A stretch of DNA of 64,000 bases from an uncultured Clostridia bacterium (GTDB lineage Bacteria; Bacillota; Clostridia; Christensenellales; UBA1242). The stretch covers positions 420,228 through 484,227 of the forward strand of contig CAKVHV010000001.1 of the NCBI GenBank assembly GCA_934754475.1. Reading direction: 5' to 3'. This document shows, piece by piece, positions 32,645 through 45,805 of the stretch. Each line of letters begins with the position of its first letter. Position 1 is the first letter of the stretch. The notes beneath the pieces were generated by a model, which made no database searches, was not told where the DNA came from, and saw only the letters and a program-made list of their open reading frames with translations. The position numbers were made by a program, and so were the translations under genes.

Positions 32645-32719
32645 AGGGGTGTGGCTCAATGGTAGAGTAGCGGTCTCCAAAACCGTAGGTTGTGGGTTCG
32701 AGTCCTACCACCCCTGCCA
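32645..32719 (+). tRNA. tRNA-Trp (anticodon CCA), CCA end encoded
   Basis: AGGGGTG acceptor pairs with CACCCCT. Anticodon loop CTCCAAA. T-arm GTGGG-TTCGAGT-CCTAC. Terminal GCCA. Confidence 0.92.
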
Positions 32720-32896
32720 AAACATTCAAATAAATTTATTTTTTGCCAAGGGTGGTAGGAAGTATGCTTTGCATACCCAACAAAAACCCTTGGTTTTTTG
32801 TTGCTCGAACCGGTGACGTTCGCTTATTTGTGCTAGCACACGCTCACTAATTTGATTACTTCGTAATCTGCACCGCGTCGCAACCACCCCTGCCAA
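32720..32896 (+). other. 177-bp G+C-enriched tRNA-Trp trailer bounded by a 14-bp direct repeat of the tRNA 3' end; contains an antisense copy of the tRNA 3' strand and nested hairpins
   Basis: accacccctgccaa occurs at 32707-32720 and again at 32883-32896. gggtggtagga (32750-60) is the reverse complement of tRNA nt 32703-13. There is a ccaaggg..cccttgg stem plus T6, with an inner gtatgc-ttt-gcatac hairpin. Confidence 0.5.
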
Positions 32897-32942
32897 GTAA
32901 ACAAAAAGAAAGTCTTATTTTGAGACTTTCTTTTTTGTTTAC
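32897..32942. terminator. Bidirectional rho-independent terminator between the tRNA-Trp unit and rny
   Basis: Long inverted repeat gtaaacaaaaagaaagtct / agactttcttttttgtttac, with A/T runs on both sides. Confidence 0.8.
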
Positions 32943-33010: not shown

Positions 33011-34600
33011 TTATTTTGCATAGTCAACGTTACGAGTTTCTCTAATGACATTAACCTTAATTTGACCTGGATATTCCATTTCTTTTTCAATCTTTTGAGC
33101 AATATCTTTAGCCATAAACAAAGCTTGTTCATCGGTTACTTCGTTCGGTTTAACAATAATTCTAATTTCTCTACCGGCTTGGATAGCATAACTTGTATCT
33201 ACACCCTTGAAACTATTTGCAATTTCTTCGAGTTGAGTTAGACGTTTGATATATGCTTCCAAAGTCTCACGTCTTGCACCTGGCCTACTACTACTGATTG
33301 CATCGGCAGTTTGAACAAGTATTGCTTCCAAACTTTCAAACTCAACATTTCCGTGGTGAGCAGCGATACAATGGATAACTTCCTTGCTTTCTTTGTATTT
33401 TGTAGCCAAATCTACACCGATTGTAACGTGTGTTCCTTCGGTTTCGTGGTCAATTGCCTTGCCAATATCGTGGAGCAAACCACCCCTTTTGGCGATTTGA
33501 ACATTAGCACCAACTTCGGCAGCAAGAAGTCCAGCCAAATAACATACTTCCAAACTATGTTTAAGTACGTTTTGACCATAACTTGTACGATATTTAAGTC
33601 TACCAAGAAGTTTGATAAGTTCAGGGTGCATACCATGAATACCCGCATCAAAAACAGCGGCTTCGCCTTCTTCCTTGATAGTATTTTCTATATCTTTGGT
33701 TACTTTATCCACCATTTCTTCGATTCTAGCTGGATGAATACGTCCATCTAATATGAGTTTTTCAAGAGAAATTCTCGCAATTTCCCTTCTAACTGGGTCA
33801 AACGAAGATAGAACAACTGCTTCGGGAGTATCGTCGATAATCAAATCAACCCCAGTTGCAGCTTCCAAGGCACGAATATTACGACCTTCTCTACCAATAA
33901 TTCTACCCTTAACTTCATCATTAGGAAGTGGAACTGTCGAAACAGTTACTTCGCTAGTATGGTCAACAGCAGTTTTTTGAATAGCAAGTGTAACAATTTC
34001 CTTAGCCTTTTTGTTTGCTTCGTCTTTTGCTTGGTTTTCTATATTTCTAACAAGGATTGCTGCATCTTTTTTTGCATCTTCTTCGTATTTAGAAATAAGT
34101 TCCTTTTTTGCTTCTTCTTTTGTTAGTTTTGATATTCTCTCAAGTTCTTTGGTCATTTTTTCGGTTATTGCATTTTGTTCGTCTTGAGATTTTTTGAGCA
34201 TCGCTTCTTTTTCCGCCAAATCTTCTTTAATCTTTTCGATTTGGTCGTTTTTCTTTTCGATTAACTCTTCTTTTTTGTCCAAAAATTCTTCTCTTTGGTT
34301 AATTCTGTTTTCTGCTTTTTGCATTTCTGCACGACGAGTTTTGAGTTCTTGGTCACATTCGCTTGTTAGTCTAAAGGCTTCTTCTTTTGCTTCCAAAACC
34401 GCTTCTTTTTTTAGGTTTTTGGCTTCAGCCTTTGCTTCTTCTAACAAACTTTTTGCACTGGTTTTATCTTTTTCAGCCTTGTCTTTTTGCACTTTTCTTA
34501 GCACAAAGAATGTACTAGGAGTAGCAACAGCAAGTCCAATCAAAACACCAATTAGACCAGTAACCCAACCCGACATAAGCATCATACTTATGTTTAACAT
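33011..34600 (-). CDS. rny: Ribonuclease Y
   Basis: N-terminal TM helix, long K/E-rich coiled coil, KH domain ([26 protein letters not shown]), HD domain (GLLHDIGKA). AAAGGAG RBS. Confidence 0.95.
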
Positions 34601-45498: not shown

Positions 45499-45549
45499 AA
45501 AAAAAAGACCTTATCATGAAGTGATTTAGTTTATCACTACATGATAAGG
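45499..45549 (-). terminator. Rho-independent terminator (minus strand) downstream of the structured-RNA candidate
   Basis: 17-bp stem with one mismatch (45509-25 / 45533-49), followed on the minus strand by T8 (plus-strand A-run 45499-45506). Confidence 0.7.
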
Positions 45550-45550
45550 C

Positions 45551-45691
45551 ACTTAACAATATTAATATTGAATTAGTATAGTAACCATATTTGTCGGGTG
45601 GCAGTGCAACTGACGGGTCCCCGACTACCCTTGATGGTTCATATGGCGTTAGCCATTGCATGCACTAGCATGCAGAATCCATCCCAAGCAC
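45551..45691. ncRNA. Unassigned G+C-enriched structured RNA candidate bracketed by two terminators
   Basis: Markedly more G+C than its surroundings. Hairpins tgcatgc-acta-gcatgca (45656-73), atggc-gtta-gccat (45643-56) and gtcggg..cccgac (45593-98 / 45619-24), plus aaccat/atggtt. No ORF. I could not match it to SRP, 6S, tmRNA or a riboswitch by eye. Confidence 0.35.
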
Positions 45692-45720
45692 AAAAAAATG
45701 ACCTTTGATAGGTCATTTTT
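45692..45720. terminator. Bidirectional terminator immediately after tRNA-Tyr
   Basis: Perfect 9-bp stem aaatgacct/aggtcattt with an A-run upstream and a T-run downstream. It abuts the tRNA-Tyr CCA end at 45721. Confidence 0.75.
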
Positions 45721-45805
45721 TGGTGGGAGGGGATGGATTCGAACCATCGAAGTCTGAGACGACGGATTTACAGTCCGTTGCATTTGACCGCTCTGCAACC
45801 CTCCC
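45721..45805 (-). tRNA. tRNA-Tyr (anticodon GTA), long variable arm, CCA encoded
   Basis: Reverse complement is GGGAGGGTTGCAGAGCGGTCAAATGCAACGGACTGTAAATCCGTCGTCTCAGACTTCGATGGTTCGAATCCATCCCCTCCCACCA. Confidence 0.92.

Follow-up and report, generated by a model that had tools for sequence, protein, structure and literature searches.

A tRNA-linked-repeat-type module behind tRNA-Tyr and its counterparts at tRNA transcription units of an uncultured gut Clostridia genus

Introduction

The closest described systems to the element considered here are the tRNA-linked repeats (TLRs) of Escherichia coli, which have reportedly been in the literature since the work of Egan and Landy in 1978 and are said to have been treated by Rudd in 1999. 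We compare with them the flank of a tRNA-Tyr gene in a 64,000-nucleotide stretch of an uncultured Clostridia bacterium (Christensenellales, UBA1242; assembly GCA_934754475.1, contig CAKVHV010000001.1, positions 420,228 to 484,227), here called the window, in which an 11-mer antisense to the tRNA forms the 5' arm of a TLR-type module. E. coli has 22 TLRs at ten loci, with one to five at each (PMC8144298). [quoted passage not shown] These three, RrA, RrB, and RrF, follow the 5S rRNA genes of rrnA, rrnB, and rrnD, sit between the T1 and T2 terminators, arise from read-through, and bind Hfq and CsrA (PMC8144298).

At the tyrT/tyrV locus of E. coli K-12, we found 178-bp units that end in the last 19 nt of tRNA-Tyr. 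The repeats behind tyrT/tyrV are the source of RtT RNA (rttR; Rfam RF00391). These units carry GGGGAAGGAT-GA-GAAGCTTCGA, an inverted copy of the whole T-arm (19/22), followed by AAGGTTCGA, which copies the 5' strand of the T-stem plus TTCGA in direct orientation, ~85 nt of hairpins with GAA/GAAA loops, and the direct 3' end. They close by pairing of the 5' arm with the 3' arm, as the Clostridial units described below do. The tyrT-tyrV spacer itself (L127, K-12 1286709-1287622) holds a fourth, more diverged TLR unit, with 132.9 bits to RF00391 and the inverted arm GGGGAAGGGT.

Several other kinds of element bear comparison. The bottom-strand attC sites of integrons and the attP(+) hairpin of CTX phage, a substrate of XerCD, are imperfect inverted repeats in which the duplex site forms only in the single strand. 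Williams in 2002 reportedly surveyed islands and prophages that reside in tRNA genes, with a sublocation in the T-loop. MITEs (miniature inverted-repeat transposable elements) and palindrome-associated elements include the Correia, RUP, BOX, and REP/BIME families and the PATEs of IS200/IS605.

Results

The tRNA-Tyr flank carries a TLR-type module

The tRNA genes of the window are tRNA-Trp on the plus strand and a six-gene minus-strand cluster, Pro-Met-Asp-Phe-Thr-Tyr, in which tRNA-Tyr comes last (ARAGORN). Coordinates refer to the whole 64-kb window unless prefixed C1, C2, or C3, which denote contigs of the bacterium's own genome (G000). The cluster-terminal tRNA-Tyr(GTA) gene occupies 45721-45805 on the minus strand (ARAGORN; Rfam RF00005). 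A perfect 11-bp inverted repeat reported here in the initial annotation was confirmed: gaatccatccc at 45675-45685 is matched by gggatggattc at 45730-45740, and the two bracket a hairpin and T-run at 45692-45715. The copy at 45730-45740 corresponds to tRNA-Tyr positions 57-67, which span the end of the T-loop, the 3' strand of the T-stem, and the first acceptor bases. Its partner, which reads GGGATGGATTC on the minus strand, is the exact reverse complement of these positions and is the 5' arm of a TLR-type module (45675-45685).

For a 30-nt tRNA tail compared with 250 nt of flank, an exact inverted 11-mer match is expected by chance with a probability of ~4800/4^11 = 0.001 per tRNA. As a control, the 250 nt upstream of each of the genome's 36 tRNAs contained no inverted match longer than 7 nt. 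Downstream of cluster-terminal tRNAs, the inverted match was 8 to 15 nt in 15 cases, while cluster-internal tRNAs gave 4 to 7 nt.

All further parts of the Tyr module lie on the minus strand. The proximal terminator (45692-45715) consists of the hairpin TGACCT-ATCAA-AGGTCA (45699-45715) and a T-run (45692-45698), and it looks bidirectional because an A-run precedes it. The 5' arm is followed by hairpin 1 (TGCATGC-TAGT-GCATGCA; 45657-45674), of which the family keeps the position and not the sequence, by hairpin 2 (ATGGC-TAAC-GCCAT; 45643-45656), and by GAACCATC (45633-45640), the reverse complement of the T-stem 5' strand of tRNA-Tyr plus TTC (positions 49-56). The 5' arm and GAACCATC together make up an inverted copy of the T-arm, which hairpins 1 and 2 split at C56|G57. 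Next comes the conserved core (45593-45629), in which GGTA precedes a stem GTCGGG...CCCGAC with the apex GACCCGTCAG-TTGCA-CTGCCA. This core is of class A and scores 68.4 bits (E = 5e-15) with R1, a covariance model of the class-A core only; MAFFT failed to align the variable hairpins across modules. Comparison with relatives identified an AAATAT motif and a decayed last hairpin at 45570-45592, and a strong second terminator (45499-45549) ends the locus.

A 3' arm, the copy of the tRNA-Tyr 3' end, is absent from the Tyr module of the bacterium's own genome and kept in those of G025, G013, G062, G014, G005, and G028. Because this arm is found in relatives and missing here, we consider the module 3' truncated. 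The sequence that replaces the lost arm contains a promoter-like site, TTAACA-18-TATAGT (10 of 12 positions; 45553-45582, plus strand), which points into the Tyr module and is a bare consensus match.

One layout is shared by modules throughout the genome

The genome measures 1.36 Mb with 32% G+C on five contigs. One or two modules of ~125 to 190 nt stand behind 15 of its 22 tRNA transcription-unit ends, with the Ile locus ambiguous. Every copy immediately follows the terminator of the unit's last tRNA gene and has the same orientation. Read in the direction of the tRNA, a module begins after the tRNA terminator with a 5' arm, the reverse complement of positions ~57-70, and continues with two hairpins of free sequence and the reverse complement of positions ~44-56. 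Since the latter reaches into the variable region, it is not derivable from a copy of the tRNA 3' end. In 18 of 37 scorable copies, a return strand comes next, directly copying the 5' strand of the T-stem. The core then reads GGTA, stem, AAATAT, A/T-rich hairpin, and T(T/A)GA, and a direct copy of positions 56-76 with CCA closes the module, followed by a copy of the terminator. The break points, at which the inverted copy is split and the direct copy starts, fall at T-loop positions 54-57 and mostly at C56|G57, the center of the TTCGAA palindrome. Folded as a single strand, the module is closed by pairing of the 5' arm with the 3' arm, and four to six hairpins radiate from the junction.

Direct 3'-end copies of 10 to 21 nt including CCA were present at 11 loci of this genome, and two tandem units stood behind both Leu-TAG and Arg-ACG. 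No open reading frame (ORF) was found inside any unit. A tail enriched in G+C had been proposed for the two flanks of the window; the enrichment is real, with 48% G+C in module bodies and 32 to 33% in the genome.

Individual loci depart from the standard layout. The Asn module (C1:92300-92400) is without the last hairpin and 3' arm, in place of which there are three tandem copies of the 27-nt unit CACCAAGCGTGGGTGGTGTATCAAATA. Behind tRNA-Ile (C2:42990-43300), the 3' end of tRNA-Ile, with CCA, recurs 104 nt downstream as a 15-nt inverted copy, TGGTAGAGATGAGTG, which is adjoined by two copies of GAGTGACGA(G/A)AACTACA, a layout unlike that of the standard module. A standard class-A module with a tRNA-Ile 3' arm is present in G025, located elsewhere.

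The tRNA-Trp flank repeats the layout with a different core

The tRNA-Trp(CCA) gene (32645-32719, plus strand; ARAGORN; Rfam RF00005) is a single-gene unit, and its module is complete. A weak hairpin of A and T only, with a T-run, separates gene and module (32728-32744). The order of parts that the initial annotation had described here as matching the Tyr flank was recovered: the 5' arm (32746-32760) includes GGGTGGTAGGA (gggtggtagga, 32750-60), the reverse complement of tRNA-Trp positions 60-70, and is followed by hairpin 1, GTATGC-TTT-GCATAC (32762-76). Together with hairpin 2, CAACAAAAACC...GGTTTTTTGTTG (32778-803), this hairpin fills 32762-32803. At 32804-32811, CTCGAACC is the reverse complement of GGTTCGAG, the end of the T-stem 5' strand plus the T-loop. 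The core (32812-32882) is of a second subtype, with a GGTGAC-stem, the apex GTGC-TA-GCAC, TAATTTGA, the hairpin GATTAC-TTCG-GTAATC, and CTGCACCG; the same subtype is found behind Asn, Met, Ser-TGA, and Ser-GCT. The 3' arm at 32884-32896, which repeats in direct orientation the final 13 nt of tRNA-Trp with CCA (ACCACCCCTGCCA), pairs with the 5' arm and is directly followed by a strong bidirectional terminator (32897-32942). All these features are on the plus strand, and a convergent gene ends nearby at 33011.

This closing copy of the tRNA 3' end, present after Trp and lost after Tyr, had been overlooked previously. An ATGC..GCAT hairpin had been taken as a family feature, but hairpin 1 has an unrelated sequence in every other copy and only the presence of a hairpin is kept, so the likeness of TGCATGC and GTATGC is a coincidence. 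Aligning the two flanks with MAFFT, as had been suggested, gave no meaningful sequence similarity. Their kinship lies in the layout, and the cores are of different subtypes. In an Rfam scan of the window, only tRNAs reached gathering scores, and both flanks gave only noise at E ≤ 10.

Elsewhere in the window, a single ORF of 8985 amino acids (27 kb; 4532-31489, minus strand) is very large for a genome of 1.36 Mb.

Modules form a tRNA-specific family restricted to gut Clostridia

The suspicion that the two flanks represent a family of tRNA-flank elements proved correct, and the family is far larger than two copies and has tRNA-specific arms. In addition to the copies behind 15 of the 22 unit ends, the suggested covariance-model scan with R1 found exactly 10 class-A copies in the bacterium's own genome and matches in 20 of 37 genomes of the genus, with up to 12 copies per genome. 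There were no R1 matches in 24 genomes from other families of the order. An exact core pattern was located at 32 loci when searched against one genome for each of 185,579 species, all in assemblies of uncultured Clostridia, Clostridiales, or Christensenellales from animal or human guts, and was absent from 2.9 million viral contigs.

A co-oriented tRNA was located <900 nt upstream of 27 of 38 core matches in public assemblies, and the remaining matches were at contig ends or behind later inserts, with a tRNA 3'-end copy still present. No module copy was found away from a tRNA 3'-end copy in the genome itself or in the public assemblies. Across the genus, we collected modules for at least 19 different tRNAs. 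Where a tRNA has changed, the module matches it: in G012, the T-arm of tRNA-Arg(ACG) differs from that in G000, and matching differences are seen in both arms of the module, 5' and 3', and in its second inverted segment.

Orthologous modules are conserved in structure and loci turn over

Module bodies fold with z = -4.4 relative to dinucleotide shuffles, and the two flanks of the window reach z = -6.7 and -6.3. Flanks are ~90% identical between G000 and G025, a close relative. Scripts were used to measure pair conservation in orthologous modules, in which substitutions are almost confined to loops. In the four closest pairs, changes affected 10 of 408 paired positions (2.5%) and 30 of 196 unpaired positions (15%); in more distant pairs, 11 of 13 double changes restored a Watson-Crick pair. 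Stem conservation and compensatory changes of this kind indicate that the hairpins are maintained in place and are not decaying scars. Orthologous modules are thus under purifying selection for structure in place.

Units are nevertheless gained, lost, duplicated, and reordered at the loci. At tRNA-Tyr, at least 10 species of the genus have an empty site, with tRNA and terminator only; a single unit is present in G000, G013, G062, G014, G005, and G028, three or more tandem units in G025, and units of another subtype in G020 and G024. Arrays reach four units (G012). At tRNA-Arg, a second-subtype unit adjoins the tRNA in G025 with a class-A unit outside it, while G000 has two class-A units and then just the first 30 nt of the second-subtype unit of G025. 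The repeated segment often continues past the terminator into the next 5' arm, and for this reason unequal or circle-mediated recombination fits better than precise transposition.

At tRNA-Ser(CGA), the module sits 25 kb from its tRNA (C2:263509-288950), with islands inserted between them. Large serine recombinases are present twice in these islands, at C2:264361 and at C2:284593, and just the final ~8 tRNA bases are used at the right island junction (TTGACTCCGCCA). Since the islands were inserted between tRNA and module, the module would be the older, outer resident. At tRNA-Glu(CTC), the terminator loop is flipped between two species, GTCC-GAAA-GGAC versus GTCC-TTTC-GGAC (C3:80392-80567 versus L053 of G025), which may be a mark of template switching or loop inversion at the palindrome. 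A non-coding gap of a filamentous-prophage-like region (C1:310540-310700) contains two tRNA-like minihelices, for example GCTGGCC...GAGTTCGAGTCTC...GCCAGCC, each combining an acceptor-like stem with a T-arm. A link between these minihelices and the modules was considered and dropped, as no sequence relation was seen.

Discussion

Comparison with described systems

The module agrees with E. coli TLRs in its position directly behind a tRNA gene and in the same orientation, in unit size (~100 to 180 nt), in the occurrence of one to five tandem units, and in ending with a copy of the last 18 to 19 nt of the upstream gene including CCA. Both kinds of unit are G+C rich and full of hairpins with GAA/GAAA loops. 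Given the inverted T-arm copy and the direct T-stem 5' copy in the E. coli unit, the parts also come in the same order in both: anti-3' part, anti-5' part, direct 5' part, structured insert, and direct 3' part. The earlier statement that no described motif has such a layout was therefore mistaken, as the E. coli repeats share it at depth. There are also clear differences. E. coli units are without the two hairpins that Clostridial units hold inside the inverted T-arm copy, their insert differs from the Clostridial core GGTA...AAATAT...TTGACG, and they contain no terminator copy, whereas every Clostridial unit has one. The GAA/GAAA loops are on the tRNA strand in E. coli but on the opposite strand in Clostridia. 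Moreover, the Clostridial hosts have genomes of 1.0 to 1.4 Mb with modules at most tRNA units and not at a few.

The RtT model RF00391 (gathering score, 45 bits) scored 133 to 137 bits on E. coli units and matched no Clostridial unit at E ≤ 1, nor the window flanks at E ≤ 10. With a shared deep layout and no match to RF00391, we file the module as TLR-type and outside the RtT family, and by analogy of layout it appears to be a Gram-positive counterpart of the E. coli TLRs. Literature searches returned no described Gram-positive counterpart, and in the papers searched, reports of TLRs were limited to enterobacteria. The tRNA-Trp module also resembles the setting of RrA, RrB, and RrF, which are structured elements found where a stable-RNA operon ends, with a terminator on either side, and repeat at their 3' end the 3' end of the upstream gene. 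Those RNAs differ in being linked to 5S rRNA rather than tRNA and in binding Hfq and CsrA through GGA loops; expression and binding have been shown for them.

Likeness to the remaining systems is partial. The modules resemble attC and attP(+) sites in forming cassette-like arrays beside one fixed site and may resemble them in having strand-specific features; a single-strand fold and arm pairings are present, and the strand signals conflict. They differ in that no recombinase was found, the target is the tRNA T-loop and not attI or dif, and the cassettes are gene-less. As in islands and prophages at tRNA genes, a direct repeat of the tRNA 3' part starts in the T-loop and several elements may be stacked at one tRNA, but the modules have no integrase or genes, show one fold and core at many tRNAs, and include an inverted tRNA copy. 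MITEs and PATEs are likewise small, non-coding, hairpin rich, and multicopy and vary in presence or absence between relatives. They have fixed terminal repeats, whereas module ends are local tRNA copies, and no fixed target duplication accompanies the modules. Because the arms vary with the tRNA and no copies occur away from tRNA 3'-end copies, we did not place the modules among them.

Candidate explanations for the modules

There is about an even chance, in our estimation from the sequences, that the modules give rise to stable RNAs that imitate tRNA ends. Transcription of the tRNA unit would read through into the module, and the transcript would be trimmed at its tRNA-like 3' end to leave a stable structured RNA, the closing helix and NCCA tail of which may imitate the acceptor/T minihelix of the cognate tRNA. 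Units would turn over by recombination between the repeated segments composed of a tRNA 3' end and a terminator. The tRNA strand as the source of such an RNA is favored by the tRNA promoter, which is the sole strong promoter nearby, and by the polarity of the layout, which matches that of the E. coli repeats with their known sense RNA. Shuffle-controlled z-scores also slightly favor this strand (-4.39 versus -3.74).

Several observations weigh against a read-through RNA. At most loci, a seemingly good terminator stands between tRNA and module. Truncation or arm decay affects many copies, the Tyr copy in this genome among them, and many species have no module at a given tRNA, so any function must be dispensable. 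Kinship with the E. coli repeats is one of design, as the absence of an RtT match leaves homology not demonstrated. Further objections concern the strand. By raw folding energy, 48 of 53 units favor the strand opposite the tRNA. This strand also has 49 GNRA and GNA loops compared with 3 on the tRNA strand, and single stem mismatches read on the tRNA strand as 14 A.C versus 4 G.U after de-duplication, several of them at one homologous position. Raw energy was dropped as a test of strand: it is also lower on the antisense strand of the E. coli RtT, an RNA known to be sense, and the shuffle-controlled scores point the opposite way.

The same strand signals would be expected if the RNA were made from the opposite strand, either as an antisense small RNA or as a multi-hairpin block that halts or degrades convergent transcripts before they enter the tRNA gene. 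Interspecies loop substitutions preserve GNRA on that strand (GAAA to GUAA and GGGA to GGAA), tRNA-Trp has the convergent gene ending at 33011, and the promoter-like site at 45553-45582 faces the Tyr module. Promoter scans, however, gave bare consensus matches only, and this lone site lies in sequence that replaces a lost 3' arm, while complete units are bracketed by bidirectional-looking terminators without room for a promoter. Considering also that mismatch classes in orthologue comparisons (9 versus 5) are not decisive and that the z-scores slightly favor the tRNA strand, we regard an opposite-strand RNA as unlikely.

A tentative alternative dispenses with RNA and treats the module as a folded single-strand recombination cassette. 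Here a unit of ~185 nt, consisting of tRNA 3' end, terminator, 5' arm, hairpins, and core, would travel as a small circle and be inserted at the T-loop center. Pairing of the 5' arm with the 3' arm and of the anti-T5 segment with the T5 strand would rebuild a T-arm duplex with hairpins branching at the T-loop center, and a putative recombinase would exchange strands with the chromosomal tRNA gene in a manner resembling attC or CTX attP(+). New units would enter beside the tRNA and displace older ones outward. Such a cassette accounts for the layout most economically: one crossover at the T-loop center gives the exact order observed, with the terminator duplicated and a direct copy beginning at C56, and the inverted and direct junctions both fall at 54-57, in the center of the TTCGAA palindrome. 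Tandem arrays, reordered units, empty sites, the 25-kb island pair between tRNA-Ser(CGA) and its module, and the flipped terminator loop, as a mark of template switching, would also fit. The stems, moreover, are nearly all perfect Watson-Crick, and GAA/GAAA loops closed by C-G are on one strand; in work by Hirao et al., such loops reportedly make very stable DNA mini-hairpins. What tells against a cassette is that no recombinase was found, no circles were seen, and no copy occurs in viral contigs. Large serine recombinases and reverse transcriptase are absent from unit-rich genomes, a new tRNA would demand rewriting of all three tRNA-derived segments, and conservation of stems in place is not predicted for simple parasitic DNA unless turnover is fast. 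Large serine recombinases (PF07508) were rejected as movers in view of the mismatch between their distribution and that of the modules: they are absent from G025, G010, G013, G028, and G018, each with 6 to 10 class-A units. More broadly, no transposase, reverse transcriptase, or serine recombinase tracks the modules.

Two explanations drawn from known mobile elements fare worse. Direct repeats of a tRNA 3' end that start in the T-loop are the classic mark of attL and attR, and the genome does have islands at tRNA-Ser(CGA); the modules might accordingly be decayed attachment-site scars of integrase-borne islands or prophages that formerly resided in tRNA genes. This is very unlikely: inserts of 125 to 190 nt without coding remnants have one architecture and core in common at no fewer than 19 different tRNAs, no inverted tRNA copy arises from integration, the stems are under selection, and the tRNA-Ser islands use a different, more 3' crossover separate from the module. 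Least credible of all is a non-autonomous retroelement primed by the cognate tRNA. Its appeal is that the opposite strand starts with TGG and the complement of the tRNA 3' end, which covers the last 13 to 21 tRNA nt including CCA and ends in the T-loop as in retroviral primer-binding sites. This complement, however, is merely the other strand of the direct 3' copy. Reverse transcriptase (PF00078) is absent from G000 and G025, each with at least 10 units, and occurs in 10 of 41 genus genomes in a manner unrelated to unit counts; the idea was rejected because no reverse transcriptase is present.

Implications

Returning to the read-through RNA as the preferred explanation, its main competitor also suggests a wider principle, which we consider doubtful: TLR-type modules would be gene-less cassettes that dock at tRNA genes as single-stranded circles, with a putative host recombinase inserting and excising them at the T-loop center and a fold that rebuilds the T-arm region of their own tRNA gene as a duplex four-way junction. 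If this were true, the same principle would underlie the E. coli TLRs and thus operate in two distant phyla.

The same deep design as in E. coli TLRs is now seen in a distant, genome-reduced genus of gut Clostridia, where modules occupy most tRNA transcription units in dozens of tRNA-specific versions. The comparative set is large enough to define the layout, in which an inverted T-arm that is split precedes a core and a direct 3' end and break points fall at the T-loop center, and it provides evidence against the modules being decaying junk. For annotation, the duplicated tRNA ends resemble integration scars and would mislead island finders. The modules also yield testable models, either a read-through RNA that would mimic a tRNA end or a folded single-strand cassette.

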